A stretch of DNA of 64,000 bases, from positions 3,331 to 67,330 of the forward strand of contig JBIIXU010000009.1 in the NCBI GenBank assembly GCA_044347145.1, given 5' to 3'. The position numbers were made by a program, and so were the translations under genes. Positions 38,822 through 56,197 of this stretch are shown here, piece by piece (the first letter of the stretch is position 1; the number at the start of each line of letters is the position of its first letter). This stretch comes from Flavobacterium sp. GTDB lineage: Bacteria > Bacteroidota > Bacteroidia > Flavobacteriales > Flavobacteriaceae. The notes under the pieces were generated by a model that saw nothing but the letters and a program-made list of their open reading frames with translations, was not told where the DNA came from and made no database searches.

Positions 38822-38895
38822 AACAAGTGTTAAAAAACTAAAAATTGTGGGTTTATTAAGTATTTTTTATACTTTTGTTTATCCAAATCTTAAAA

Positions 38896-43939: not shown

Positions 43940-44683
43940 CTACCCGTTAAAAACGCCCAACAGTGCATCTTTATAAGTCGCTGCCACATCAATCTCTTTT
44001 TTATTGATTAATGTAACCACGCCACCACTACCTTTTTGATAACTCACCATGAATTCTGTATTGATGATATGCGACCGATGAATGCGAATAAAAGGCGCAG
44101 CAAGCAAATCTTCAAAATGTTTTAAAAAACGACAAACCATTTTTTTACCGCCATCTTTTAAATGTATCTGCGTAAAATTGCCGTCTGCTTCTAGATGAAC
44201 AATTTGGTCTAATTTAACTACCTCAAATCCTTGCAAGGTGGGAATAATCAATTGTTGTTGGATGTGATTTTGTTTGATGTTTTGCAACAAAATTTCATTT
44301 CTATTAAAATTTTCATTTTTTTCTATTTGTTCTTGCACTTTTGCAACTGCTTTGATTAGCTCTTGAATATCTATAGGTTTTAAGATGTAATATGAAGCAC
44401 TCATATTCAAAGCTTGCAAAGAGTACTCAGAAAAAGCGGTAATAAAAATGGTTTCATAAGTACAATCTGCCGTGGCTTCTAACACATCAAAGGCATTGCC
44501 AAAAGGCATTTCTACATCCAAAAAAACCAATTGCGGCTGGGTAGATCTGATTAAAGGCTCAGCTTCCTTGATATTCTGCGCTTCACCTAAAACCTCAACT
44601 TGTGGACAATGCTTGGTTAAATAACTGCGTAATACCTCTCTGGCTATTTGTTCGTCGTCAACGATGACTGCTTTTATTTTCAT
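43940..44683 (-). CDS. LytTR-family two-component response regulator
   Basis: 247-aa ORF. It has a receiver domain (phospho-acceptor context LVFLDVEMP) and a C-terminal LytTR domain (FIRIHRSHIIN). Confidence 0.9.
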   Translation of the reverse strand: MKIKAVIVDDEQIAREVLRSYLTKHCPQVEVLGEAQNIKEAEPLIRSTQPQLVFLDVEMPFGNAFDVLEATADCTYETIFITAFSEYSLQALNMSASYYILKPIDIQELIKAVAKVQEQIEKNENFNRNEILLQNIKQNHIQQQLIIPTLQGFEVVKLDQIVHLEADGNFTQIHLKDGGKKMVCRFLKHFEDLLAAPFIRIHRSHIINTEFMVSYQKGSGGVVTLINKKEIDVAATYKDALLGVFNG

Positions 44684-44711
44684 GGAAAAATTTATGAATT
44701 GTAGTTCTTAA

Positions 44712-45004
44712 TCAAAAACTTAAACGTTTAGGATTTTGATAATTATTCCAAAATATTAACAAGGTGATTTTGTTATCTTTTAACTCATAATATAATGTTA
44801 TTTGCATAACAACCACTATTTGATAAACGTACTTCTTCCTTGTTGATTGAAAAATAACATCGCCTCTTGCAATTGATTAAGCACCTCGTTAACTTTATTG
44901 AAAAAACTTTCAACTTCTCTCTCTGACCACTCACTTTCTAAATAGTCAATATTTTGCCAATAATCAAATCTAGCATTTTCAGACCAAGTTATTGGTAACA
45001 TCAT
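44712..45004 (-). pseudogene. ParE/RelE-family toxin interrupted by a 1-nt frameshift
   Basis: The track ORF 44816-45004 gives the N-terminal part (MMLPITWSENARFDYWQNIDYLESEW...AMLFF) and then stops. The -1 frame continues as QSTRKKYVYQIVVVMQITLYYELKDNKITLLIFWNNYQNPKRLSF, ending at the TGA at 44714-44712. The junction is an A5 run at 44850-44854 on the + strand, and one extra base there restores a ~97-aa toxin. Confidence 0.65.
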
Positions 45005-45217
45005 TTATTCTTTAAAATATTTAGGATACTTTAATCTGGTCATTCGCATAACTTCTTCATGCGTATGCACTCTGCCATTTGCCACATCATCTAAAGCTTC
45101 GTCTATGGCTTTGATTTGTTCTGGAGTCAAGTCTATGGCGTCTTCTGTAAATAAAAAATCTTCTTTAGAACCATTTTGCCCATTTAATTCATAGGCAATA
45201 TCAAAAGCTTTAAACAT
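45005..45217 (-). CDS. Putative antitoxin partner of the ParE/RelE-like toxin
   Basis: 70-aa acidic ORF whose stop codon directly abuts the toxin start codon (45004/45005). No family motif recognised with certainty. Confidence 0.5.
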   Translation of the reverse strand: MFKAFDIAYELNGQNGSKEDFLFTEDAIDLTPEQIKAIDEALDDVANGRVHTHEEVMRMTRLKYPKYFKE

Positions 45218-45323
45218 TTCTATTAAGGCTTTTGTTTTAGTGGGTTAGGTTTTAATGATAAGTGTGTCCATAAGTAAGATAAATTATACAAAGATAAAAA
45301 ATATTAGAATACATTATACAAAT

Positions 45324-45710
45324 TTAACCAATACCCCTCAACCGTTCATTCTCCAGTTCAAGTTGATTGTTTTTAGCTTTCAAAATCTCGTTCTCCTCCT
45401 CTAATTTGGCAATATATTTGCGCTGGCTGTCTAATAAATATTCTGGTACGCTGTAAATATTGTTTGTGCCTTGATAATTACCCGTTGCTTGGTCTTTGCA
45501 AATAAACACCATGCTTTCTTCACTTTCATAAATATCTTCCACTGGCACGTCTAAAGACTTGGCTATTCTGTCCCATTCTTCTTGATGAATTTTACTGTGC
45601 CCGTTTTCTTTTCTGCTATAGGTTGAGGTGGTCATGCCCATAAGTTGAGCCATTTTGGCTTGAGAAAAACCTTTGGTTAAACGTGCAGAAGTGAGTTTTG
45701 TTTTTTCCAT
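45324..45710 (-). CDS. XRE-family HTH transcriptional regulator with a C-terminal coiled coil
   Basis: It has the HTH segment LTSARLTKGFSQAKMAQLMGMTTSTYSRKENG and a C-terminal heptad-like region, KLEEENEILKAKNNQLELENERL. The likely start is MEKTKL (ATG at 45710). It is divergent from the peptide genes. Confidence 0.8.
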   Translation of the reverse strand: MEKTKLTSARLTKGFSQAKMAQLMGMTTSTYSRKENGHSKIHQEEWDRIAKSLDVPVEDIYESEESMVFICKDQATGNYQGTNNIYSVPEYLLDSQRKYIAKLEEENEILKAKNNQLELENERLRGIG

Positions 45711-45731
45711 AATCTTTGATGTTGCGTAAAA

Positions 45732-45748
45732 TTGCAATTAAATTGCAA
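45732..45748. promoter_or_regulatory. 17-bp palindrome TTGCAATT-A-AATTGCAA (operator candidate)
   Basis: Read directly, 22-38 nt upstream of the XRE ATG in the divergent intergenic region. AAATTG(C/T) also recurs at 45729, 45740 and 45771. Confidence 0.35.
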
Positions 45749-45796
45749 CAAAAATAATAATATTTTTGAAAAATTGTTGTTTTATTTGTAACAGTT

Positions 45797-45826
45797 TTGC
45801 TCACTACAAATTTTTTATTACATTTG
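45797..45826 (+). promoter_or_regulatory. Bacteroidota sigma-A-type promoter candidate for the precursor peptide genes
   Basis: TTG (45797-45799), a 19-nt spacer, then TAcaTTTG (45819-45826). This matches the TTG-N19-TAnnTTTG consensus and lies 74 nt upstream of the ATG at 45900. Confidence 0.4.
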
Positions 45827-45899
45827 AGTGCACGCAGATGGAAAAAGAAGAATGAGTGAGAAACAAAAAAATTATTATTAATTATTAAATTTTAACATT

Positions 45900-46103
45900 A
45901 TGGAAAGTTTAAAAAAATTTCAAAACAAACAAATTAAAGGTAATTTTATTTTTGGTGGTGGTTGGGTAAATACAAGTTCTACAAAGACCAACGAACAAGG
46001 ATGCACTGTAACTACTGAAGACAGGTTTAATGACACAAATGGTGATGGTATTTGGAATTCTGGTGAGACTGGTTCAATGTGCGTAGGTATTGAATGTAAA
46101 TAA
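45900..46103 (+). CDS. RiPP precursor peptide A1 (double-glycine-type leader)
   Basis: 67-aa ORF: MESLKKFQNKQIKGNFIFGG/GWVNTSSTKTNEQGCTVTTEDRFNDTNGDGIWNSGETGSMCVGIECK. It has a leader-like N-terminus ending in GG, and a core rich in Ser/Thr, Asp/Glu and Cys. It is first in the operon with the ATP-grasp, SPASM and C39 exporter genes. Confidence 0.7.
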   Translation: MESLKKFQNKQIKGNFIFGGGWVNTSSTKTNEQGCTVTTEDRFNDTNGDGIWNSGETGSMCVGIECK

Positions 46104-46112
46104 TTAATTATT

Positions 46113-46310
46113 ATGAAAAGTTTACAAAAATTTCAAATAAAAAAGATTTCTAATTTAAATAGAAATATAGGCAGCGGATGGGTGCATACTAGTGGATGCT
46201 GTACTCTTGTGAATGGCGAACAAGTGACTAGAGATATTTTTTATGACACCAATGGAGATGGGTCATGTAATACTTTTAGTGAATTTCAATCAATGTCTTA
46301 TGTTAAATAA
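46113..46310 (+). CDS. RiPP precursor peptide A2 (paralog of A1)
   Basis: 65-aa ORF: MKSLQKFQIKKISNLNRNIGSG/WVHTSGCCTLVNGEQVTRDIFYDTNGDGSCNTFSEFQSMSYVK. It shares M-x-SL-x-KFQ, GWV-x-TS and F-x-DTNGDG with A1. Confidence 0.7.
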   Translation: MKSLQKFQIKKISNLNRNIGSGWVHTSGCCTLVNGEQVTRDIFYDTNGDGSCNTFSEFQSMSYVK

Positions 46311-46355
46311 AATAGTTAGTTCTATATGATAACATGCATTAGAAAAATTAAATAT

Positions 46356-46970
46356 ATGGGTAAAATTTTACCCATATATTTTTTTGCAACTATAATCTTT
46401 TTATCATGTAGCAAAAAAGTTTTTTTTGCTAAAAACGCATATTGTAAAGAATTAGACAAAATAGTACATGATGACCAGTTTCAAAGAAATCAACAAAGTG
46501 TAATTGACAATAAGTATGGTTTAAGAACAAATGCTACCGTTATTGATAGTTTAAACAAGATAAAGAGCGATGATGGTTCTGCTTTTAAAAATATAAAACC
46601 AATTTCAAAACAATTAGAAAAACTTAATGACTCTGATAAGGCAAATTATCATAGAGAAAACGATTCCTTATGGAAGGTTATAAGAGCTACTGATAGTATT
46701 AATCTTGTTAAAATTATTAAAATTGTAAAAACACATGGCTTTCCAACATTTTCTAAAAGTAAAGCTAATAATTGTAGTCAAGGCTATGGTGTGATATTTA
46801 GGCATTTTGATTACAATAGTGAAAATGGAAAAAAACTCATCAAATTAATCAAAGCAGAACATAAAAAAGAACCATTAACTGATGATGAATTGAGAGGTTT
46901 AATTTGGCATGCAAATGGGAGAAAAGAAATTGAGTGGGAAATTGATGTAAAAAAATGGATGGCACAATAA
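46356..46970 (+). CDS. Lipoprotein of unknown function within the RiPP operon (immunity/accessory candidate)
   Basis: The likely start is MGKILPIYFFATIIFLSCSKK (ATG at 46356), with lipobox FLSC. No catalytic motif recognised. It overlaps the ATP-grasp gene start by 16 nt. Confidence 0.55.
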   Translation: MGKILPIYFFATIIFLSCSKKVFFAKNAYCKELDKIVHDDQFQRNQQSVIDNKYGLRTNATVIDSLNKIKSDDGSAFKNIKPISKQLEKLNDSDKANYHRENDSLWKVIRATDSINLVKIIKIVKTHGFPTFSKSKANNCSQGYGVIFRHFDYNSENGKKLIKLIKAEHKKEPLTDDELRGLIWHANGRKEIEWEIDVKKWMAQ

Positions 46971-47863
46971 TCGTATCTGAACCAAGTGATATTTCTGCGA
47001 TAAGGGTTATAGATTGGTTGTTTCACTATAACTGTAATGTTATAAAGGTTAACACAGATGAAAAATTTGAATTAAACTTTAAAATTGACAACACAAAAAC
47101 ATCATCAAATATTGATAAATTTAAGATCTGGTATAGACGTGGCTACTTTTCATTTTTTGATTTAAAAAATAACTTTAATAAATATTTAAGTGAAGAAAGT
47201 AAAAATGTTAATTTCTTTATTGAAAAAAGTAATTTTCAAACTTTTGGATCATATTTTAAAGAATTTAGTAACAATAAAATTGAGAATTTATACTTTGCGA
47301 AACTTTCCGGACTTAAAATTCCAAAAACAATTTTGACATATTCCAAGAAGGAAGTTGTTGATTACTTTGGCGAAAACAAGTTGTTGATTACTAAATCAAT
47401 ATATAAACCATATAAAGATAGCAAAAATGGTAATTGGAGTTTTATTAAAAGCCCAATCGTATTTAACTCTTCAGATTTTATTGAAAATTTTGGTTTATCA
47501 CAAGTACAGGAATATATTAAAAAAAAATTTGAAATAAGAACATTCTTTTTCAAGGACTACCATTTTAGTATGGCTATTTTCTCTCAAAACAATAGTAATA
47601 CAAAGTTTGATTATAGAAATTATGATGAAATCTTTCCAAACAGACTAGTTCCTTATGAATTGCCTAAAAAGATTGTAGGAAAACTAAAAAAATTTATGAA
47701 ATTAACTAATCATGATACTGGTTCAATTGATATTATCTATAGCACCAATAATGAATATGTTTTTTTAGAAGTAAATCCGCAGGGTCAATATGACTGGTTA
47801 TCTGGCAATTGTAATTATTATATTGATAAGTATATTGCTGAAAGCCTTTTAAATAAAAACTAA
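46955..47863 (+). CDS. ATP-grasp peptide maturase (graspetide-type ligase)
   Basis: 302-aa ORF with an ATP-grasp C-terminal pattern: VQEYIKKKFEIRTFFF, DYRNY and GSIDIIYSTNNEYVFLEVNPQGQY (the E-x-N Mg/ATP site). Its size and context match RiPP ATP-grasp ligases. Confidence 0.75.
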   Translation: MDGTIIVSEPSDISAIRVIDWLFHYNCNVIKVNTDEKFELNFKIDNTKTSSNIDKFKIWYRRGYFSFFDLKNNFNKYLSEESKNVNFFIEKSNFQTFGSYFKEFSNNKIENLYFAKLSGLKIPKTILTYSKKEVVDYFGENKLLITKSIYKPYKDSKNGNWSFIKSPIVFNSSDFIENFGLSQVQEYIKKKFEIRTFFFKDYHFSMAIFSQNNSNTKFDYRNYDEIFPNRLVPYELPKKIVGKLKKFMKLTNHDTGSIDIIYSTNNEYVFLEVNPQGQYDWLSGNCNYYIDKYIAESLLNKN

Positions 47864-47864
47864 A

Positions 47865-48029
47865 ATGAAAGATTTAAGCAAATTACCAATTGAATTTAAA
47901 AATTTACGAAATATTGAAGAGCCAAAAGCGAATAATATTGCAAAAAACTATATTATGAAAGATTATAATTCAAAATTTAATAGTTATATAAAATTTTACA
48001 AAAATATTTCTAAAAGAATTAGTTTATAA
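47865..48029 (+). CDS. Unlisted 54-aa ORF between the ATP-grasp and SPASM genes
   Basis: Hand translation gives MKDLSKLPIEFKNLRNIEEPKANNIAKNYIMKDYNSKFNSYIKFYKNISKRISL. The ATG lies 1 nt after the ATP-grasp stop, and its TAA is immediately followed by the SPASM gene ATG. At 54 aa it is shorter than every ORF in the supplied track, which may explain its absence. Confidence 0.4.
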   Translation: MKDLSKLPIEFKNLRNIEEPKANNIAKNYIMKDYNSKFNSYIKFYKNISKRISL

Positions 48030-49124
48030 ATGGATAACTTGGAGTATTTCGTATTTTTTAGCACAGTAAAAATAACTAAAGGGCATAATCAGTCTATTAT
48101 AATTGATTTTCAAAGAAATTTTAGTATGACTATACCTAATGATTTGGCTGTTTTTGTTGAATCAATCAATAAAAAGAGTAAATCAATCATTGAAAAAAAG
48201 TATTTAAAATTAAAGGAGTCAAAAGATGAGTATATTAACTTTTTGATAGAAAATGAATTTGGATTTTTTACAAACAATCCTAAAAACTTCCCAGAATTAA
48301 ATAATATTTTTCAATTACCTGAAGTAGTTTCAAATGCAATTATAGAGTATAATAATCAAAATTACTCTATTAATGATGCACTTTATAAATTAAGCAACAT
48401 AAAATGCAAAAATATTGAACTATTTCTTAAAAATAACGTGAAATTAAATAACCTTTTTAATGTGTTAGATTATATTAATAAACAAGAGCTTAATTTTTGG
48501 AATATATCCATTTTTATTAATCACGAAGAAAATAAAGAAGAAGTTGATTATAGAAAACTTTTAGACAACAAACGTATAAGTTTTATGGTAGTTTATAATT
48601 TTAAATATGATAAGAAAATTTTGAATTCAGAATCAATATTATGTTTTACAACCCAAAACTTAAATAACAGAAATACATGTGGTATATTTAATGAAGATAT
48701 TTTTAGTATTAATATTCAGCATTACACCGAATCCCTCAACCACAACTCCTGCCTCCACAAAAAAATCTCCATAGACGTTGATGGCAACATCCGCAATTGC
48801 CCTTCCATGCCACAAAGTTTTGGCAACATCAAAGACACCACACTTGAAGAAGCGCTCAACCATCTAGATTTCAAAAAATACTGGAACGTAACCAAAGACA
48901 TGATTGCCGTTTGTAAAGATTGTGAGTTTAGACATATTTGCACCGATTGCCGTGCTTATACCGAACGCACCCATTTTGGGGAAGACATCGATTTATCCAA
49001 ACCCTTAAAGTGTGGTTATAACCCCTATACCAATGAATGGGTGGAGTGGAGCACCAATCCATTAAAAGAAAAAGCCATTGAATATTACGGCATGCAAGAT
49101 TTGGTGAAAAAAGATGGTCTATAA
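48030..49124 (+). CDS. SPASM-domain Fe-S peptide maturase lacking a canonical radical-SAM motif
   Basis: 364-aa ORF. Its C-terminus carries a complete seven-Cys SPASM pattern: C241-x10-G-x4-C258, then C296-x2-C299-x5-C305-x2-C308, then C328 (VCKDCEFRHICTDC). The N-terminal 240 aa contain only three scattered Cys and no CxxxCxxC. Confidence 0.8.
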   Translation: MDNLEYFVFFSTVKITKGHNQSIIIDFQRNFSMTIPNDLAVFVESINKKSKSIIEKKYLKLKESKDEYINFLIENEFGFFTNNPKNFPELNNIFQLPEVVSNAIIEYNNQNYSINDALYKLSNIKCKNIELFLKNNVKLNNLFNVLDYINKQELNFWNISIFINHEENKEEVDYRKLLDNKRISFMVVYNFKYDKKILNSESILCFTTQNLNNRNTCGIFNEDIFSINIQHYTESLNHNSCLHKKISIDVDGNIRNCPSMPQSFGNIKDTTLEEALNHLDFKKYWNVTKDMIAVCKDCEFRHICTDCRAYTERTHFGEDIDLSKPLKCGYNPYTNEWVEWSTNPLKEKAIEYYGMQDLVKKDGL

Positions 49125-49219
49125 ACCCATCTTGCAATAATGCTCTAAAACTTCTAAAATGGTTCTAAAAGAGATAAACCTAAACTATTATTTTTTCTAA
49201 AAAAATGATTACAAAATAG

Positions 49220-51496
49220 ATGGCGTTTAAACCCTTCCCCCACTTCAAGCAACCCGATGCCAAAGACTGTGGCCCCACTTGTTTGCGCATCATTGCCAAA
49301 CATTATGGCAAGTCGTTGTCATTGCAGCAAATCCGCAACTTGAGCGAAACCACCCGAGAAGGCAGTAGCCTCATGGGACTAAGCGAAGCCGCCGAGAGCA
49401 TGGGCTTCAAAACCTTGGGCGTAAAAATCAATTTGCAAATGCTGGTTGAAGATGCCCCATTGCCTTGCATCTTGCATTGGAATAAAAATCATTTTGTGGT
49501 TCTGGCCTCCCTCAATCCCTCCAAAGGAGGGAAGTTTAAGTTTTTCAAAAGATTTTTTAGCAGTAAAAATAACGTAGCCCAAAGCTCCCCCTTTGGGGGT
49601 TGGGGGGCTGTAGTTTCCGACCCCGCCTACGGCTTAATTGAATACACCCAACAAGAATTTCTACAAGCTTGGATTGGTGCCAATGCCACCGCAGAAACAG
49701 AAGAAGGTGTTGCCTTGCTACTCGAGCCCACACCAGCCTTTTACGAACAAGAAGATGACAAATCCGACCGCAAAAGTTTTCGGTTTTTGTTAAAATATGT
49801 TATGCCATACAAACGCCTCATGGGGCAATTGGCATTGGGTTTGCTCACCGCCAGTATGCTCTCATTGGTGTTTCCGTTCCTTACCCAGAGTTTGGTTGAT
49901 GTAGGCATACGCAATCAAAACCTCAATTTTATCTATTTGGTGTTGATAGCGCAGTTGTTTTTGTTTATGGGTCGCACCGCCATTGAGGTCATTCGCTCTT
50001 GGATATTGTTGCATTTGAGCACACGCATTAACATTTCATTGGTCAGCAATTTTTTCATAAAACTCATGAACTTGCCCATTGGTTTTTTTGATACCCGGAT
50101 GACAGGCGATATTTTGCAACGCATCAATGACCATAAACGCATTGAGGTTTTGTTGACGAATACATCTTTGAGCACCTTGTTCTCCATGGTTAACCTCATT
50201 ATTTTTAGTGGGGTTTTGGCATTTTATAATTTGACTTTATTTGTAGTTTTCATCGTTTTAAGTGCGGTTTATGTGGCATGGATTTTATTTTTCCTTAAAA
50301 AACGCAAAGAATTAGACTACAAGCGGTTTTCTCAAATGTCGCAAGAAAACAGCAAAGTCATTGAACTGATTAATGGCATGCAAGAAATAAAAATGCACAA
50401 TGCCGAAAAACAAAAACGTAGGGATTGGGAGTTTGTGCAGGTGAAGTTATTTAAAATCAGTATGCAAGGCTTATCTTTAGACCAATGGCAAAGCACAGGT
50501 TCAAATTTTGTCAATGAATTGAAAAACATTCTTATCACGTTTTTATCTGCCAGTTTGGTACTCAAAGGCGACATCTCTTTGGGCATGATGTTGTCTGTGC
50601 AATACATTATTGGTCAGTTAAATAGTCCACTCATGCAATTGGTTGGTTTTATTCAGCAAGTGCAAGATGCCAAAATAAGTTTGGAGCGTTTGGGTGAAAT
50701 TCATGACAAAGTAGAAGAAGAATATCCTGAACAACAATTGCTCAAAACCGTTGAACCACAAGATTTAATGGTTGATAATCTGTTCTTTAGATACACAGGC
50801 ATGATTGATGATTATGTGCTTGAAAACCTAAGTTTAACCATTCCTCAAAATAAAACAACAGCTATTGTTGGTTCAAGTGGCAGCGGTAAAACGACTTTAT
50901 TAAAACTTTTGCTTAAGTTTTATGACCCTAATCAAGGACAAATTACGCTTGGTAAAACCCCTTTGAGCAATATCAGTCCTAAAGTATGGCGGAGTCATTG
51001 TGGTGTGGTGATGCAAGATGGTTATATTTTTAATGATACCATTGCGCAAAACATTGCCGTTGGTGATGACAGCATTGACAAAGCAAAACTTCTTCAAGCC
51101 GTTGAGGTTGCCAACATCAAAGATTTTATTGAAGGTTTGCCATTGCGTTATAATACCAAAATAGGTAATGAAGGCATGGGTATAAGTGGTGGTCAAAAAC
51201 AGCGTTTACTCATTGCCCGTGCGGTTTATAAAAACCCAGATTATATCTTTTTTGATGAAGCCACCTCTTCTTTAGATGCTAATAATGAAAAGATAATCAT
51301 GGAAAATTTAGAAAATTTTTTCAAAAATAGAACAGCCATTGTGGTAGCCCATCGTTTGAGTACGGTGAAAAATGCAGATAAAATCATTGTTTTAGAAAAA
51401 GGTAAAATCATAGAAGAAGGCACGCATAAAGATTTGGTGAAACTTAAAGGGGCTTATTATACGTTGGTAAAAAATCAATTGGAGTTGGGGGAATAG
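49220..51496 (+). CDS. Peptidase C39 domain-containing ABC transporter (bacteriocin/RiPP leader-cleaving exporter)
   Basis: 758-aa ORF. It has an N-terminal C39 domain (QPDAKDCGPTCL catalytic Cys, NHFVV His, SDPAYG Asp), six TM segments, Walker A (GSSGSGKTT), the ABC signature (ISGGQKQR) and Walker B (IFFDEATS). Confidence 0.93.
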   Translation: MAFKPFPHFKQPDAKDCGPTCLRIIAKHYGKSLSLQQIRNLSETTREGSSLMGLSEAAESMGFKTLGVKINLQMLVEDAPLPCILHWNKNHFVVLASLNPSKGGKFKFFKRFFSSKNNVAQSSPFGGWGAVVSDPAYGLIEYTQQEFLQAWIGANATAETEEGVALLLEPTPAFYEQEDDKSDRKSFRFLLKYVMPYKRLMGQLALGLLTASMLSLVFPFLTQSLVDVGIRNQNLNFIYLVLIAQLFLFMGRTAIEVIRSWILLHLSTRINISLVSNFFIKLMNLPIGFFDTRMTGDILQRINDHKRIEVLLTNTSLSTLFSMVNLIIFSGVLAFYNLTLFVVFIVLSAVYVAWILFFLKKRKELDYKRFSQMSQENSKVIELINGMQEIKMHNAEKQKRRDWEFVQVKLFKISMQGLSLDQWQSTGSNFVNELKNILITFLSASLVLKGDISLGMMLSVQYIIGQLNSPLMQLVGFIQQVQDAKISLERLGEIHDKVEEEYPEQQLLKTVEPQDLMVDNLFFRYTGMIDDYVLENLSLTIPQNKTTAIVGSSGSGKTTLLKLLLKFYDPNQGQITLGKTPLSNISPKVWRSHCGVVMQDGYIFNDTIAQNIAVGDDSIDKAKLLQAVEVANIKDFIEGLPLRYNTKIGNEGMGISGGQKQRLLIARAVYKNPDYIFFDEATSSLDANNEKIIMENLENFFKNRTAIVVAHRLSTVKNADKIIVLEKGKIIEEGTHKDLVKLKGAYYTLVKNQLELGE
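49505..49609. repeat. 105-bp in-frame element with inverted GC-rich hairpin ends inside the C39 domain
   Basis: The left end is gcctccctcaatCCCTCCaaaGGAGGGa (49505-49532). The right end is tCCCCCtttGGGGGttggggggct (49586-49609), whose reverse complement aligns with the left end. The element spans exactly 35 codons (ASLNPSKGGKFKFFKRFFSSKNNVAQSSPFGGWGA), between the catalytic His and Asp. Confidence 0.55.
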
Positions 51497-51675
51497 TAGA
51501 ATAGTATATTGTATAATGTAAAATTGTATAGATGCATGGTGTAAAAATATAAATAAGATGAAATTTAGAAATTAATTACCTTTGTGTCGAATATTAAGAG
51601 ATGTGAACAAATAATATTTAAAAAAGTTATCATAAATTGTAACTTTATTCTTATATTTGTACCAAACTGTTTAGG

Positions 51676-51969
51676 GTGAAAATATTTTCAAGAGGTACAT
51701 TAAGAGATTTTTGGGAAAAACACGCTGATGCTAAAGAATCATTAATGTCTTGGTACAGAGAAATAAATAAATCGAACTGGCATTCAATTAATGAATTAAA
51801 ATTAATCTATCCAAATGCAAGTATTTTAAGAGATAATAGAATAGTTTTTAACATAAAAGGTAATCACTATCGATTAGTTGCCAAGATTAATTTTGATTAT
51901 CAACTTTGTTTGATAAGATTTGTGGGGACTCACAGTGAATATGATAAAATTAATGCAAACGATATTTAA
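51676..51969 (+). CDS. higB: Type II toxin HigB (mRNA interferase)
   Basis: 97-aa ORF with a GTG start. The sequence MKIFSRGTLRDFWEKHADAKESL...IRFVGTHSEYDKI fits the HigB-toxin family pattern, and the toxin-first gene order is typical of higBA. Confidence 0.82.
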   Translation: MKIFSRGTLRDFWEKHADAKESLMSWYREINKSNWHSINELKLIYPNASILRDNRIVFNIKGNHYRLVAKINFDYQLCLIRFVGTHSEYDKINANDI

Positions 51970-51972
51970 ACA

Positions 51973-52329
51973 ATGAAACTAAAACCTATTAACACAGAAA
52001 AAGATTATCAAAAAGCTATGGTGCGATTAGCTATTTTGTTTGATGCAAAAAAAGGTACAGCAGAAGGCGAAGAACTTGAAATATTAGCCATATTGATTGA
52101 TAAATACGAAACAGAAAAGTTTCCTATTAATCTCCCAGATCCTATTTCAGCTATTTCATTTAGAATGGAACAAATGGGCTTAAAACAAAAGGATTTAGAG
52201 CCAATGATTGGTTTTAAAAGTAGAGTAAGTGAAATCATGAATAAAAAACGAAAACTAACGCTAAGCATGATTAGAAATTTAAGCACAAATCTAAAAATAC
52301 CTGCAGAAGTTTTGGTACAGGATTATTAA
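51973..52329 (+). CDS. higA: Antitoxin HigA (XRE-type HTH)
   Basis: 118-aa ORF starting 3 nt after higB. It has a C-terminal HTH segment (LKQKDLEPMIGFKSRVSEIMNKKRKLTLSMIRNL). Confidence 0.82.
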   Translation: MKLKPINTEKDYQKAMVRLAILFDAKKGTAEGEELEILAILIDKYETEKFPINLPDPISAISFRMEQMGLKQKDLEPMIGFKSRVSEIMNKKRKLTLSMIRNLSTNLKIPAEVLVQDY

Positions 52330-52354
52330 TTTTACACTTCAAAAACACAAAACA

Positions 52355-52573
52355 ATGGAACTAACCATCACATTAGAAGAAAACAACGAACAAGCAAAAG
52401 CCTTGGTTAAATATTTAAAAAATTTATCTTTTGTTAAGATAAAAAAAGAAAAGAAAACCAACTACAACCCCGATTTTGTAAAAAAAATATTGGAAAGAGC
52501 AGATAATGCAGCAAAGGGAAATGTTACAACAATTGATCCAAATGACTTATGGGGAAGTTTGAACTTAAAATAG
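52355..52573 (+). CDS. Antitoxin of YoeB-like module, copy 1
   Basis: 72-aa ORF that overlaps the downstream toxin start by 25 nt. Its first ~143 nt are nearly identical to 52858-53000. Confidence 0.6.
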   Translation: MELTITLEENNEQAKALVKYLKNLSFVKIKKEKKTNYNPDFVKKILERADNAAKGNVTTIDPNDLWGSLNLK

Positions 52574-52824
52574 ATGATCAAGCTAAAGAAGATTTTGCAA
52601 AGATTAGAAAATCTGGCGACCAAGCAACGATTAAAAAACTTGAGAAAATTATTCTTGAATTGTCTGAACATCCCAAAACTGGCATTGGCAATCCCGAACC
52701 ATTAAAACACCATTTAACAGGGTTTTGGAGCAGAAGATTAAATAAAAAAGACCGTTTGATTTATCAAATATTTGAAGAAAAAGTAGTAGTAATAGTCATT
52801 TCAGCTTTAGGACATTATGAGTAA
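52549..52824 (+). CDS. yoeB: YoeB/Txe-family toxin, copy 1
   Basis: 91-aa ORF with GIGNPEPLKHHLTGFWSRRLNKKDRLIY, matching the YoeB signature (GKPEPLKHNLSGFWSRRI..HRLVY in E. coli YoeB as I recall it). Confidence 0.85.
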   Translation: MGKFELKIDDQAKEDFAKIRKSGDQATIKKLEKIILELSEHPKTGIGNPEPLKHHLTGFWSRRLNKKDRLIYQIFEEKVVVIVISALGHYE

Positions 52825-52857
52825 AAACAAATCAATTTCCAATTAAAAATTAAACCC

Positions 52858-53073
52858 ATGGAACTAACCATCACATTAGAAGAAAACAACGAACAGGCGA
52901 AAGCCTTGGTTAAATATTTAAAAAATTTATCTTTTGTTAAGATAAAAAAAGAAAAGAAAACCAACTACAACCCCGATTTTGTAAAAAAAATATTGGAAAG
53001 GTCTGAGAATGCTGCAAAAGGCAATTATATTGTTGTTGATGAAGCCTATAAAAAAGAACTTTTTGGTAAATGA
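52858..53073 (+). CDS. Antitoxin of YoeB-like module, copy 2
   Basis: 71-aa ORF. The N-terminal 47 aa are identical to copy 1 and the C-terminal third is divergent. It has an ATGA overlap with the toxin. Confidence 0.6.
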   Translation: MELTITLEENNEQAKALVKYLKNLSFVKIKKEKKTNYNPDFVKKILERSENAAKGNYIVVDEAYKKELFGK

Positions 53074-53342
53074 ATTACAAAGTTATAGTAGAACCAAAGG
53101 CAGATGAAGATTTTAAAAAAATTGTAAAGTCTGGTGATAAAGCAACAATAAAAAAGCTTGAAAATATTTTGGATGAGTTAGTCCTCAGCCCCAAAACTGG
53201 CATTGGCAATCCCGAACCATTAAAACACCATTTAACAGGGTTTTGGAGCAGAAGATTAAATAAAAAAGACCGTTTGATTTATCAAATATTTGAAGAAAAA
53301 GTAGTAGTAATAGTCATTTCAGCTTTAGGACATTATGAGTAA
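53070..53342 (+). CDS. yoeB: YoeB/Txe-family toxin, copy 2
   Basis: 90-aa ORF. The last 153 nt are 100% identical to 52672-52824. The N-terminal ~40 aa have diverged from copy 1. Confidence 0.85.
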   Translation: MNYKVIVEPKADEDFKKIVKSGDKATIKKLENILDELVLSPKTGIGNPEPLKHHLTGFWSRRLNKKDRLIYQIFEEKVVVIVISALGHYE

Positions 53343-53370
53343 ATGAATTTTTTAGACTAAAAAAAACACC

Positions 53371-54681
53371 ATGCCAAACAATAATCAACACCTCAACGAA
53401 TTAGAATTAAGAAGTGAAGCCGTTCAAGACATCATGAACAAACCGCCTGTGTGGTTAATCCGCTCAGGAAATAATGTGATTTTTTTAATAGTTATTGGGC
53501 TATTTGCATTGGCTTTTTTTATTAAATATCCCGATGTGGTTGTTACTGATGTAAAGATTACCACTACTATGCCACCACAAAAAGTTATAGCAAGATCTAC
53601 TGGCACGATACAACATTTATTCGTTGAAAATCAAACCTTAGTTATGCCAAACCAACCTTTAGCTATTTTAACAAATACGGCTGATTATAAAGAAGTATTT
53701 GCTTTAAAAAAAGAAATTGATAGTATCGAAAAAAATGGTTGGGATAATTTTAAAGGTTTTATGTTAAATCACGGTTTAACTAAACTGGGTGATATTCAAC
53801 CTGTTTATTTGGCTTTTCAAAAAGATGTTTTAGCCTATTCGCAACATCTAAATTTTCAACCTTTTTCTAACGAAAAAACTGCCAATCAAAAAGAAACAAA
53901 CTATCAAAATCAACGCTATCAAATTACGCAAAACCAACTTAATACGTCAATAGAAGAATTAAAATTAAAACAAACTGATTTAAATCGTTCAGAAATCTTG
54001 TTTAACAAAGGGGTAATTGCCAAAGTTGAATTAGAACAAAAGCAATTAGAATTTTTGTCTATGCAAAAGCAAGTTCAAAATATGAAACAAGCCCTTTCGC
54101 AATTACAATCTTCGAGCAATGATTTAAATAAGCAAGACACCAATTTGCGTTTACAAGAAAGAAAAGAAGAAACACAATTGTATAATAATATGCTTTTTGC
54201 CTTACAACAACTCAAAAAAGCCATAGCCGATTGGGAATTACAATATTTATTAAAGAGCGATATAACTGGCACTATAAATTTTATGCAAATTTGGTCATCA
54301 CATCAAGCGGTGGAAAGTGGCGATATAATTTTTAGCATAATACCTGTTATAAAAAATCACGTTTTAGGTTTAGCCAAAGCCACACCTCAAAACGTTGGTA
54401 AAATTAAAACAGGTCAAAAAGTTTGGGTAAAAATTGACAATTATCCCGAGCAAGAATTTGGTATGCTTCAAGCGTCTGTTAATAACATATCAAAAACACC
54501 AGATCACGAAGGCAATTGGCATTTGCAGCTCAATTTTCCAAAAGGATTAAATACAACTTATAACAAAAACATACAACTTCAACAAGAAATGTCTGGTAAA
54601 GCAGAGGTCATTACAGAAGATTTGCGATTGATAGATAGATTTTTTTATCCGTTTAAAAAAGTGGTTTCTCAAAGTTTGTAA
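53371..54681 (+). CDS. HlyD-family membrane fusion / secretion adaptor protein
   Basis: 436-aa ORF. It has an N-terminal TM segment (IFLIVIGLFALAFFI), a long coiled-coil middle and a C-terminal beta-barrel-like region, the typical partner architecture for C39 ABC exporters. Confidence 0.85.
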   Translation: MPNNNQHLNELELRSEAVQDIMNKPPVWLIRSGNNVIFLIVIGLFALAFFIKYPDVVVTDVKITTTMPPQKVIARSTGTIQHLFVENQTLVMPNQPLAILTNTADYKEVFALKKEIDSIEKNGWDNFKGFMLNHGLTKLGDIQPVYLAFQKDVLAYSQHLNFQPFSNEKTANQKETNYQNQRYQITQNQLNTSIEELKLKQTDLNRSEILFNKGVIAKVELEQKQLEFLSMQKQVQNMKQALSQLQSSSNDLNKQDTNLRLQERKEETQLYNNMLFALQQLKKAIADWELQYLLKSDITGTINFMQIWSSHQAVESGDIIFSIIPVIKNHVLGLAKATPQNVGKIKTGQKVWVKIDNYPEQEFGMLQASVNNISKTPDHEGNWHLQLNFPKGLNTTYNKNIQLQQEMSGKAEVITEDLRLIDRFFYPFKKVVSQSL

Positions 54682-54731
54682 CCAAAGTTGGTTTTGAAAA
54701 CCAAGCGCCTAGCCCAGATTGTAGTGACAGC

Positions 54732-54825
54732 CTTGTGTAGCAAAAAGTGAGTTTTTGACGACCAAACATAGCGACGGTAGGAGCTCATGGAGGGGCGAAT
54801 CAAAAACCACTATTTGCTACACAAG
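54732..54825. repeat. Long imperfect hairpin (26-27-nt arms, 41-nt loop) at the right edge of the RiPP island
   Basis: The left arm is cttgtgtagcaaaaagtgagtttttga (54732-54758). The right arm is tcaaaaaccactatttgctacacaag (54800-54825), complementary to the left arm apart from one mismatch and one 1-nt indel. It lies between the convergent hlyD-like and kinase genes. Confidence 0.6.
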
Positions 54826-54859
54826 CTAGAACGAAAAGCTGGATATAGCTTCAAAATAA

Positions 54860-56197
54860 TTATATTCTAATCTTCAAAATAACCATAACACCAGCCTCGC
54901 TGTCCTTTATTTCATAATTTATCCAATGACTATAAAGTTCATTAAGTAATTTGATTCGCTCCAAAGTATTGGTCATTCCTCTGCCCTTGTGCTGATTTTG
55001 GTGTTTGGTTTTCAGGGTTTTACTTTTTTCTATACCAATGCCATTATCAATAATTGTTGTTTTGATATGGTTGCCCTCATTTTGAAAACTGACATTTATA
55101 AAACCTTTTTCCTCTTTATAACGCAGGCCATGCCATATGGCATTTTCTATAAATGGCTGAATCAGCATGCTTGGCACTTGGCTGCTGTCCAAATCTATTT
55201 TTTCATCTATGATCAATTCAAAATCGAATTTATCATGAAAACGACTTTTTTCTAAAGATAAATAATTCTTAATCAAATCTATTTCAACTGCTACCGGTAT
55301 CAAATCATTGGTGGAATTTTCCATGATGCCACGCATTAATTTAGAAAATTTACTCAGATATTGATTAGCTTCTAGCTCATTGTTTTGCGCAATAAAATGA
55401 TTGACACTGTTTAAACTATTGAAAATAAAATGCGGATTCATTTCTCTTCTCAAGGATTGTAAAGCGATTTTTTTGTTTTTGATTTGCAATTTTTTATAGG
55501 CATATAAAATACCTAAAACAGCTAAAATCAATAGAACAGTGAAAATACCCAGACCAATATTGAAGCGTTTTTGTTGCTTCATCAAATCATTTTGCAATTG
55601 ACGTTCTTTTAGTAATTGCGCAATTTTTCCTTCGGTTTCTGCAATCACACGATCATCTATTAAGGACTGGTCTTTTTGCAAAACGGTCTGCAAATCTTTT
55701 AAAAATTTGCGATAAAAAGGCAATGATTTTTCAGGTTGCTTATTGGCTTTGTGCAGACTATCAATCTTTAAAATAACCTGTCTAGCTTCTAAAGTATGAC
55801 CTTTATCCAATGCGACTTGATAGGCGCTTTCTAAAGTTTCCAAAGCTTGAATGGGTTCGTTATTTTGAACATAAAGTGAAGCCAAGTCTTGCATAGCCGC
55901 TACTTTAGTTTTTGTATTGGCTTTGACAAAATCCTCTGCAATTAATTTATTTTGTGTTATAATGGCTTGATCTAATTGGTTTTTTTCTTTTTGAATCGCT
56001 ACAATTTTATTGCTAATTTCAATTGCTTTTTGAGGCTCATGGTCTTTGAATTGATCAAATGCCTTTTGAAAATTTTGTGTGGCCAAAACCGTTTGACCTT
56101 TCTCGGCTTGTGCGTTGGCTAAATTGACATAATTAGACCCAATCTCTTCTGATTTGTTTTGCCGTTTTGACTCATACAAATTGATTTTAGCTAACAA
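54860..56197 (-). CDS. Sensor histidine kinase (PF06580-type, LytTR-partner class), apparently 5'-truncated
   Basis: The ORF has TPR-like helices, one TM segment (GLGIFTVLLILAVLGILYAY), the NPHFIFNSLNSVNHFI His-kinase motif and a HATPase region (DNGIGI). The track start is a TTG preceded four codons upstream by an in-frame stop. There is no signal peptide or N-terminal anchor, and the first ATG is ~100 codons in. Confidence 0.78.
   Translation of the reverse strand: MLAKINLYESKRQNKSEEIGSNYVNLANAQAEKGQTVLATQNFQKAFDQFKDHEPQKAIEISNKIVAIQKEKNQLDQAIITQNKLIAEDFVKANTKTKVAAMQDLASLYVQNNEPIQALETLESAYQVALDKGHTLEARQVILKIDSLHKANKQPEKSLPFYRKFLKDLQTVLQKDQSLIDDRVIAETEGKIAQLLKERQLQNDLMKQQKRFNIGLGIFTVLLILAVLGILYAYKKLQIKNKKIALQSLRREMNPHFIFNSLNSVNHFIAQNNELEANQYLSKFSKLMRGIMENSTNDLIPVAVEIDLIKNYLSLEKSRFHDKFDFELIIDEKIDLDSSQVPSMLIQPFIENAIWHGLRYKEEKGFINVSFQNEGNHIKTTIIDNGIGIEKSKTLKTKHQNQHKGRGMTNTLERIKLLNELYSHWINYEIKDSEAGVMVILKIRI

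Follow-up and report, generated by a model that had tools for sequence, protein, structure and literature searches.

What does a peptide-maturation locus that combines an ATP-grasp ligase with a SPASM iron-sulfur protein make, and what does the SPASM protein contribute? The question is raised by a gene cluster in a 64,000-nucleotide stretch of DNA from Flavobacterium sp. (GenBank assembly GCA_044347145.1, contig JBIIXU010000009.1), here called the window, where the cluster lies in the region from position 45324 to 54850. At the level of sequence the locus is confirmed as a member of the 'grasp-with-spasm' (gwsG/gwsS) graspetide family of Bacteroidota, a kind of system that is already catalogued and whose product is uncharacterised. 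Our analysis adds four points: the SPASM protein GwsS has no radical-SAM (S-adenosylmethionine) site, the precursor peptides carry a calcium-loop motif, the small LPL protein has a second motif, and the insertion site of the cluster can be defined. The best explanation, to which we assign a probability of about 0.72 as a whole, is a gws graspetide pathway, horizontally acquired by a Bacteroidota bacterium, in which GwsS and the LPL protein would have a non-radical partner function and the precursors would carry a Ca2+-type loop.

A first-pass annotation made from the DNA alone had described this region, and all open reading frames (ORFs) that it named were found at or near their positions in the ORF list with translations. 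Its co-directional, tightly packed gene set on the + strand is real, with distances between genes ranging from a 16-nt overlap (lipoprotein and ATP-grasp genes) through 0 nt (54-aa ORF to SPASM gene) and 1 nt (ATP-grasp gene to 54-aa ORF) to 9 nt (pep1 to pep2). The divergent XRE regulator upstream was identified correctly (HTH_3, E=3e-10), as were the lipoprotein, the SPASM Fe-S protein (TIGR04193 and PF13186) and the ATP-grasp ligase with its FLEVNPQGQ site. The C39 exporter and the HlyD adaptor placed at the end of the set are both present, but they are not adjacent: they lie 1.9 kb apart, and three toxin-antitoxin (TA) pairs in this interval had been missed. A 54-aa ORF that was listed and left unexplained is here placed in the conserved LPL family. 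The database name 'grasp-with-spasm', also given there, agrees with the matches to TIGR04192 and TIGR04193.

Family membership was evaluated with the hidden Markov model searches suggested in that annotation, covering ATP-grasp, SPASM and grasp-with-spasm models. GwsS scores 311.5 bits against TIGR04193 (cutoff 175, E=9e-93) and also passes the cutoffs of PF13186 and TIGR04085. For GwsG the best match is TIGR04192, 'grasp-with-spasm ATP-grasp maturase' (192.7 bits, E=9e-57), which leads the next matches, MvdC/MvdD, by about 90 bits, though the score stays under the cutoff of the model. There are 3,744 GwsS-related protein clusters at E<=1e-5. A genome scan via the SPASM protein found at least 570 loci, and 79 of these were kept for counting neighbouring genes. 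An ATP-grasp homolog was present in 76 of the 79 loci, and in about 70 of them it immediately precedes the SPASM gene, with only a small ORF lying between the two; ABC homologs were counted in 52 loci, HlyD homologs in 43, and a homologous XRE gene upstream on the opposite strand in 19. Where enough flank was available, ORFs with a double-glycine (GG) leader lay upstream of the ligase gene in 60 of 63 loci. This gene arrangement is far beyond chance.

The family is Branch 5 of Makarova 2022 (PMC8939145), a Bacteroidetes-specific set of 190 loci. These encode an ATP-grasp protein and a TIGR04193 SPASM protein whose gene is directly preceded by that of the 'LPL' small protein, along with hypervariable GG precursors, a lipoprotein of 'cluster 23', a C39-ABC exporter and HlyD. 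The family is probably also graspetide group 14 of the RODEO classification, whose members are always accompanied by a SPASM protein (Carter et al. 2026, PMC13097080), and copies of gwsG/gwsS, so named in a 2026 preprint, reside on integrative and conjugative elements (ICEs) of Porphyromonas gingivalis. The window shares with these systems the gene set and order (GG precursors, a DUF6624-like and probably cluster-23 lipoprotein, ATP-grasp, LPL, SPASM, C39-ABC and HlyD), the often present divergent XRE gene and the Bacteroidota host. It differs in an ATP-grasp score below the curated cutoff, in the three TA pairs between ABC and HlyD, in its insertion inside a kinase/LytTR gene pair and in a precursor sub-family with an EF-hand-like loop. 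Clusters of this kind are very frequent in Bacteroidota. Within the searchable literature we found no isolated product, ring pattern, target or SPASM-protein role for them, in line with the earlier statement that no isolated product is known.

The ligase points to the chemistry of graspetides. In a search of PDB the only solved relatives of GwsG were the graspetide ligases AMdnB, MdnC, CdnC and MdnB (E from 1.7e-18 to 7e-11; AMdnB and MdnC 1.7e-18, CdnC 4e-16), the FLEVNPQGQ stretch aligns with the Mg/ATP motif of these enzymes, and the E-x-N motif is present. A role of GwsG in primary metabolism was rejected: TIGR04192 is the best family and the PDB relatives are all macrocyclases of peptides that are ribosomally made and modified post-translationally (RiPPs). 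The first-pass annotation would have been contradicted by a ligase of primary metabolism with no conserved small ORFs beside its homologs; what was found are graspetide relatives and the GG ORFs counted above. The microviridin and chryseoviridin pathways (MdnC/MdnB, AMdnB, CdnC) share with the window a homologous ligase, cores rich in Thr/Ser/Lys and Asp/Glu and, in some of them, export by a C39-type ABC transporter. They have a Pro-containing leader motif for ligase binding, whereas the window leaders contain no Pro at all and a motif of the Phhx(1,2)h or PFFARFL type is absent from both. In the window, moreover, SPASM and LPL are obligate neighbours, and the cores of about 45 aa do not have the TxKxPSDx(E/D) motif. 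Branch 5 leaders are likewise without the ligase-binding motif (PMC8939145).

Two small peptides with double-glycine leaders had been proposed as precursors. Both ORFs are present and the leader of pep1 ends in GGG before the predicted cleavage point, but that of pep2 ends in GSG and not in G-G; P0122, a near-identical 65-aa relative of pep2, has G-G-G at this place. The two peptides are 51% identical, and the core of pep2 has a D-x-F-x-DTNGDG loop like that of pep1, without the three-Cys pattern of pep1. No further pep-like genes occur in the window. A word-indexed protein search with pep1 returned only pep1 itself, the query being too short or too divergent for that tool. A two-peptide profile of pep1 and pep2, searched against 1.84 billion representatives, gave 34 matches at E<=0.001, about 24 of them peptides of 61-78 aa and the rest larger proteins. 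Five of the larger proteins were scanned against Pfam, and the matched stretches coincided with EF-hand-type loops, one of these proteins having seven EF-hands.

The profile matches together with peptides from the genome loci gave 49 non-redundant family members, which we number from the first Asp of the loop. Conserved positions are 0 (D, 49/49), +2 (N/D, 48/49), +4 (D/N, 47/49), +5 (G, 46/49), +8 (D/N, 38/49) and +11 (E/D, 45/49), preceded by -4 (D/E, 47/49) and -2 (F/Y, 43/49); pep1-type members have in addition Cys at -10, +16 and +21. Positions 0, +2, +4, +5, +8 and +11 equal positions 1, 3, 5, 6, 9 and 12 of the EF-hand loop, and the stretch DTNGDGIWNSGE of pep1 fits the 12-residue EF-hand pattern with oxygen ligands at 1, 3, 5, 9 and 12 and Gly at 6. 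A loose EF-hand pattern covers 43 of the 49 members and the PROSITE PS00018 core 11; in pep2 the loop Glu comes one residue late. Against PDB, the family profile matched almost only calmodulins and other EF-hand proteins; a dockerin, an S-layer protein and an engineered Z-Ca chain made up the rest, and the loop was in register in the matches. Among 25 members searched with the curated models, EF-hand_1 matched one (E=0.005) and Dockerin_1 one, neither of them a window peptide.

On these patterns, the mature peptides probably present an EF-hand-like Ca2+-binding loop. The DxDxDG loops of EF-hands and dockerins share with the family the arrangement D-x-N/D-x-D/N-G-x-h-D/N-x-x-E, kept at the ligand positions. 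The family differs from them in that the loop lies in a short ribosomal core with no sign of helices on either side, that many members have an aromatic or polar residue at position 8, and that Ca2+ binding is a prediction. Calcium-dependent lipopeptide antibiotics carry a DXDG motif that resembles the precursor loop. In PMC8939145 there is no mention of calcium, Ca2+, EF-hand or DxDxDG.

The same alignment bears on where rings could be closed. Asp and Asn interchange freely at +2, +4 and +8. Since Asn is unable to act as an acyl donor for an ATP-grasp enzyme, metal ligation is favoured over cross-linking at these three positions. Candidate carboxylates for ring closure are D-4, D0 and E+11, which are the best conserved. 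Among the hydroxyls, conservation is highest for a Thr/Ser that lies four to five residues inside the core and for the Thr/Ser at -5. All 68 candidate cores of the related loci contain at least two Asp/Glu and at least four Ser/Thr/Lys.

GwsS is composed of an N-terminus resembling a RiPP recognition element (RRE; about residues 1-85), a shortened alpha/beta barrel (about 100-206) and the SPASM domain (217-328). Eight Cys are invariant when 35 homologs are aligned (217, 241, 257, 295, 298, 304, 307 and 328), a sufficient number for two [4Fe-4S] clusters, and no Cys before residue 217 is invariant. In a motif count the SPASM pattern CX9-15GX4C-gap-CX2CX5CX2-3C-gap-C was found in 78 of 78 GwsS homologs (residues 241-328 of the window protein), and the radical-SAM motif CxxxCxxC in 0 of 78, the window protein included. 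Because this motif is missing, GwsS is predicted to be a protein that cannot on its own carry out hydrogen abstraction of the sactisynthase type. Residues 1-215 were modelled confidently by AlphaFold2 (predicted local distance difference test, pLDDT, mostly 75-94), with four short strands and then three helices in residues 6-74, and about four beta/alpha units after these. The only significant Foldseek matches were SuiB, BtrN, SkfB and CteB, and the N-terminal part matched the leader-binding proteins TbiB1 and lasso B1 (TM-score 0.61-0.67, probability 0.97-0.99); a comparison of the GwsS profile with PDB sequences returned noise only. From the model, GwsS looks like an RRE-radical-SAM-SPASM maturase that has lost the SAM cluster and part of the barrel. 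It shares with SuiB, CteB and SkfB the RRE-like N-terminus, a remnant of the alpha/beta barrel and the complete SPASM Cys motif, and differs from them in the missing CxxxCxxC, a predicted barrel of about half length and an unusually invariant C-terminal domain.

Mean identity across GwsS homologs is 30% in the N-domain and 76% in the C-domain, and third-codon positions are equally saturated in the two (0.42 and 0.38). Identity of 76% despite saturated synonymous sites means that the C-domain is under very strong purifying selection, and recent recombination as the source of the invariant C-domain was rejected on the same ground. A separate observation concerns codon composition, which breaks sharply within the SPASM gene (48030-51496 examined). 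The G+C content at third codon positions is 0.13-0.22 in the LPL and ATP-grasp genes and 0.19 in the SPASM N-domain. It then rises to 0.48 for the SPASM C-domain, with 0.53 for the C39 domain and 0.47 for the ABC membrane domain, before it falls to 0.30 for the ATPase domain. Across 77 related loci the rise is weaker (means 0.22, 0.32 and 0.38). A search for a donor of the GC-rich segment 48720-50720 found none, the best match being 82% over 380 nt.

The first-pass annotation had expected the SPASM protein to add Cys-dependent chemistry, so that the product would be doubly tailored, and a similar reading was proposed in PMC8939145: GwsS would install Cys cross-links of the thioether or sactionine-like kind before or after the ATP-grasp cyclisation. 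Cys is indeed present in 58 of the 68 candidate cores, three Cys are conserved in the pep1-type family, and the fold of GwsS resembles CteB, SkfB and SuiB. However, neither GwsS itself, with its shortened barrel and no CxxxCxxC motif in any homolog, nor any other gene of the island supplies a radical-SAM site. In 8 of the 58 loci with candidate precursors every candidate core is Cys-free, and GwsS is nevertheless encoded in each; Cys chemistry would therefore not be the general role of GwsS, and pep2 also does without the Cys triad. We consider a doubly tailored product improbable, and neither the Cys-dependent SPASM step nor the confident description of the product that depended on it could be upheld.

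The LPL protein has been described before through its N-terminal motif, KLPIEF in the window ('LPL' motif of PMC8939145). Its C-terminal motif, FYKNISKRI, belongs to a consensus F-Y-K-P-I-S-K-I, where K and I are each kept in 53 of 60 anchored homologs. An LPL-type motif was found in only 47 of 71 gap-ORF sequences (70 loci and the window), and the C-terminal FYKPISKI is thus the better conserved of the two. A PqqD-like chaperone role for LPL, as suggested in the literature, seems less likely because GwsS has its own RRE-like fold. Two roles would fit better: an adaptor that docks by its invariant tail onto the SPASM domain, invariant as well, or a ligand or substrate of GwsS.

Small precursors are encoded directly upstream of radical-SAM/SPASM maturases in the case of PqqA and MftA, and the LPL arrangement resembles these. 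One may then ask whether GwsS acts on LPL as its substrate or has it as an obligate peptide ligand, with the variable N-terminal part of LPL bound by the variable RRE and the invariant FYKPISKI sitting in the invariant SPASM domain. Such a role would agree with a gene that immediately precedes the one for GwsS in about 70 related loci, with a C-terminal motif more conserved than the LPL motif, with the pairing of variable with variable (N-domain, 30%) and invariant with invariant (C-domain, 76%), and with an RRE-like fold that makes a separate PqqD-like chaperone seem redundant. The pairing of conservation is only correlative, however, GwsS has no catalytic radical centre, and LPL has neither a GG site or other export signal nor, in its tail motif, an acidic residue for the ATP-grasp enzyme. 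We regard LPL as substrate or obligate ligand as unlikely. Eight loci (L004, L014, L015, L018, L023, L043, L047 and L065) form a distinct cassette type in which the small ORF starts with KKPINIFNGLK and has no LPL motif. Most of them have precursors of the type 'MKLESLK...YDYGYD...TYHNRTN' and a DUF6624-like protein of about 340-580 aa; their tail, FVKPISKII, and their SPASM C-domain are unchanged.

In the graspetide pathway with a non-radical GwsS/LPL partner, which we prefer, GwsG would phosphorylate Asp/Glu side chains of the core and close at least one ester or amide macrocycle with Thr, Ser or Lys, as expected from its homology to MdnC and CdnC. GwsS would be a derived maturase of the radical-SAM/SPASM type that has lost the SAM cluster but retained two [4Fe-4S]-binding sites and the RRE. 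Together with LPL it might form a partner complex that recognises the leader and presents the peptide to GwsG, a proposal tied to the window leaders lacking the motif bound by other graspetide ligases; GwsS may in addition contribute a non-radical redox step. The C39-ABC protein would then cut after Gly-Gly and export the peptides together with HlyD, the lipoprotein may act outside the cytoplasm in immunity or processing, and the EF-hand-like loop of the mature peptides would bind Ca2+. Partner-dependent graspetide synthesis exists in the case of rosaritide and MirC (PMC13097080). The MirC-dependent synthetases share with GwsG a strictly co-occurring extra protein that may be needed for activity or stability of the ligase. 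The putative partner in the window differs from MirC in consisting of a SPASM Fe-S protein together with a peptide of 54 aa, both unrelated to MirC, on which GwsG would depend.

Several points weigh against this explanation. The score of GwsG is below the trusted cutoff of 230 of TIGR04192. The SPASM part of GwsS is poorly modelled (pLDDT 30-45 for residues 286-364), and the Foldseek TM-scores for GwsS are low. The EF-hand resemblance is one of a 12-residue motif with marginal E-values in the PDB profile search (0.005-0.09), and in many members loop position 8 is occupied by W, Y or Q and not by I, L or V. At the cleavage site, pep2 has Ser at position -2. The TA insert could polarise or uncouple the expression of HlyD, and no outer-membrane (TolC-like) partner was seen beside the cluster. 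Finally, the ring positions and the roles of GwsS and LPL are all matters of inference.

A wider reading, which we put forward tentatively, links two proposals: the products would be ribosomal, macrocyclised calcium-binding peptides, and GwsS would be a new kind of Fe-S partner protein. The ATP-grasp rings, possibly with a disulfide, would pre-organise the EF-hand-like loop, and the conserved ligand of GwsS would be the FYKPISKI tail of LPL, the two together replacing the missing ligase-binding leader motif. If this were true, peptide activity would be Ca2+-dependent and the peptides would be the RiPP equivalent of the calcium-dependent lipopeptide antibiotics with their DXDG motif. For the preferred pathway, GwsS is predicted not to cleave SAM, and GwsS and LPL may be required partners of the ligase. 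The SPASM step is now described as 'radical SAM' tailoring, and confirmation of any of the predictions would change the annotation of a large family. The instance in the window is compact, intact and recurrent in metagenomes, and it could, if the Ca2+ reading holds, open a calcium-dependent class of ribosomal peptides. Neither the EF-hand-like precursor loop nor the FYKPISKI tail nor a hairpin behind the precursor genes was found reported in the literature searched.

This hairpin (46350-46381) has a perfect 14-bp stem followed by a U-run, lies directly 3' of pep2 and spans the lipoprotein ATG at 46356. Its minimum free energy is -21.3 kcal/mol (z=-4.4), and none of 200 shuffled sequences was equally stable. 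In about 13 of 16 related loci a similarly strong hairpin stands behind the last precursor gene. Over-expression based on attenuation is known for other peptide operons, and the hairpin fits such an over-expression of the precursors, where it would limit read-through into the enzyme genes and leave the precursors in excess. The XRE regulator would control the divergent promoter. Its ORF extends over 45324-45737 on the - strand (137 aa), and the ATG at 45710 (128 aa) is the likelier start. A perfect palindrome at 45732-45748, 22 nt upstream of this ATG in the divergent promoter region, might be the XRE operator; it is the sole copy in the window and not statistically exceptional. A scan for sigma-70 promoters stayed at chance level (57 found, 56 expected), the sigma-70 model being unsuited to Bacteroidota promoters.

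The lipoprotein ORF ends at 46970 and starts at 46356 or 46326, giving 204 or 214 aa. Its LSC lipobox is invariant in three database homologs, which supports the earlier call of a lipoprotein. A word-indexed protein search returned only these 3 matches, the query being too short or too divergent for the tool, and with jackhmmer homologs were found in 50 of the 79 loci, where with few exceptions they end at the start of the ligase. The homolog from locus L071 passes the Pfam family DUF6624 (5e-14); the window protein matches no Pfam family. By position and description it probably belongs to what Makarova 2022 calls 'cluster 23', and DUF6624 has been considered as maybe an undiscovered enzyme class (Carter et al. 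2026, PMC13097080). The AlphaFold2 model was poor (4-sequence alignment, pLDDT 64) and Foldseek gave nothing meaningful with it (best E=0.86). Scans with Pfam, NCBIfam and relaxed thresholds assigned no family to pep1, pep2, the LPL protein or the lipoprotein.

In the exporter, the C39 domain has the DCGPTCL motif with the C39 Cys. The domain also carries a 27-aa loop insertion, NPSKGGKFKFFKRFFSSKNNVAQSSPFGGWGA (49505-49615), which is lacking in most homologs and has a similar counterpart at one locus (L035); two GC-rich hairpin-like repeats lie within the insertion. In most related loci the ABC and HlyD genes are immediate neighbours, and in the window the interval of 1.9 kb between them holds HigB/HigA (51676-52329) and two tandem DUF2683-YoeB pairs (52355-53342), as assigned with Pfam and NCBIfam. 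The tandem pairs share direct repeats of 181 nt (92%) and 154 nt (100%). The splitting of ABC from HlyD by TA pairs, the GSG of pep2 compared with the GGG of P0122 and the TIGR04192 score under the cutoff could all be expected of a decaying remnant that has lost its function. Yet all ORFs are intact and of full length, and the eight Cys of GwsS, the E-x-N of the ATP-grasp and the C39 Cys are all present. Identical sequences recur as well, the SPASM protein in 40 contigs, pep1 in 57 contigs and the LytTR protein in 87 index blocks, with the same gene order in the contigs inspected. Decay is in our view very improbable.

The label of an accessory island, also given in the first-pass annotation, was evaluated on 80 metagenome contigs with an orthologous kinase (about 50% identity), 73 of which had enough flank; the LytTR proteins are about 70% identical. 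The LytTR gene starts within 400 nt downstream of the kinase gene in 57 of the 73 contigs, and in the remaining ones 0.6-4.2 kb of unrelated co-directional genes lie in between. Homologs of the grasp, SPASM, ABC and HlyD genes are absent from all of these related contigs. In the window the two genes are 10.2 kb apart and the gws cluster lies on the opposite strand. Since kinase and LytTR genes are adjacent in most related contigs, this distance supports an inserted accessory island that splits the pair. All 24 inspected contigs with an identical LytTR protein also have the island, in the same gene order. The split pair may still work as an operon or may have been recruited to regulate the cluster.

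There is no integrase in the island. An imperfect 21-nt direct repeat (18/21) occurs at both edges (44808-44828 and 54802-54822). It is too weak to be taken for an attachment (att) site, as it does not extend further and, by estimate, chance alone would give about 6 seed matches of this sort in 14 kb. The right copy also belongs to a 24-nt inverted repeat (54732-54755 / 54802-54825), as one of its arms, in the space that separates the HlyD gene from the convergent kinase gene. At the left edge, the pair of 62- and 70-aa ORFs is toxin-antitoxin-like by size and arrangement only, and the Pfam scan gave no family for either.

Table 1. Features of the grasp-with-spasm island and its flanks (window positions).
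Feature	Coordinates	Strand	Basis
LytTR response regulator (left flank, host backbone)	43940..44683	-	BtsR/LytR-type matches; Pfam Response_reg and LytTR
Inserted island of about 10.2 kb, kinase-gene stop to LytTR-gene start	44684..54859		Comparison with related contigs
Two small overlapping-frame ORFs, 62 and 70 aa	44816..45217	-	ORF list; called as genes on metagenome contigs
Divergent XRE-family helix-turn-helix regulator, 128 aa	45324..45710	-	HTH_3 E=3e-10
Palindrome TTGCAAT-TAA-ATTGCAA, candidate operator	45732..45748		Sequence reading
Precursor peptide pep1, 67 aa	45900..46103	+	Leader MESLKKFQNKQIKGNFIFGGG; core WVNTSS...GCTVTTEDRFNDTNGDGIWNSGETGSMCVGIECK; EF-hand-like loop; three Cys
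Precursor peptide pep2, 65 aa	46113..46310	+	Leader end G-S-G; homologs P0122, P0135, P0154
Hairpin of 14 bp with U-run, likely attenuator/terminator	46350..46381	+	Minimum free energy and shuffle test
Predicted lipoprotein, distant DUF6624-like	46356..46970	+	LSC lipobox; jackhmmer links to related loci
GwsG-type ATP-grasp, 302 aa	46955..47863	+	TIGR04192 E=9e-57; PDB relatives AMdnB, MdnC, CdnC
LPL-family small protein, 54 aa	47865..48029	+	KLPIEF and FYKNISKRI motifs; conserved position
GwsS SPASM protein, 364 aa	48030..49124	+	TIGR04193 311.5 bits; PF13186
C39-peptidase/ABC exporter, 758 aa	49220..51496	+	Pfam Peptidase_C39, ABC_membrane and ABC_tran
Three toxin-antitoxin pairs	51676..53342	+	Pfam/NCBIfam matches; direct repeats
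HlyD-family membrane-fusion adaptor, 436 aa	53371..54681	+	TIGR01843 E=5e-27; HlyD_3
Sensor histidine kinase (right flank, host backbone)	54860..56197	-	Weak histidine-kinase ATPase-domain matches; orthologs adjoin LytTR genes

Outside the island, an M36 metallopeptidase is encoded at 38875-41496. It has a PA domain and a C-terminal Por sorting tail (type IX secretion), which places the host in Bacteroidota, and the genes near it include ComEC, NlpC/P60, LpxB and SurE.

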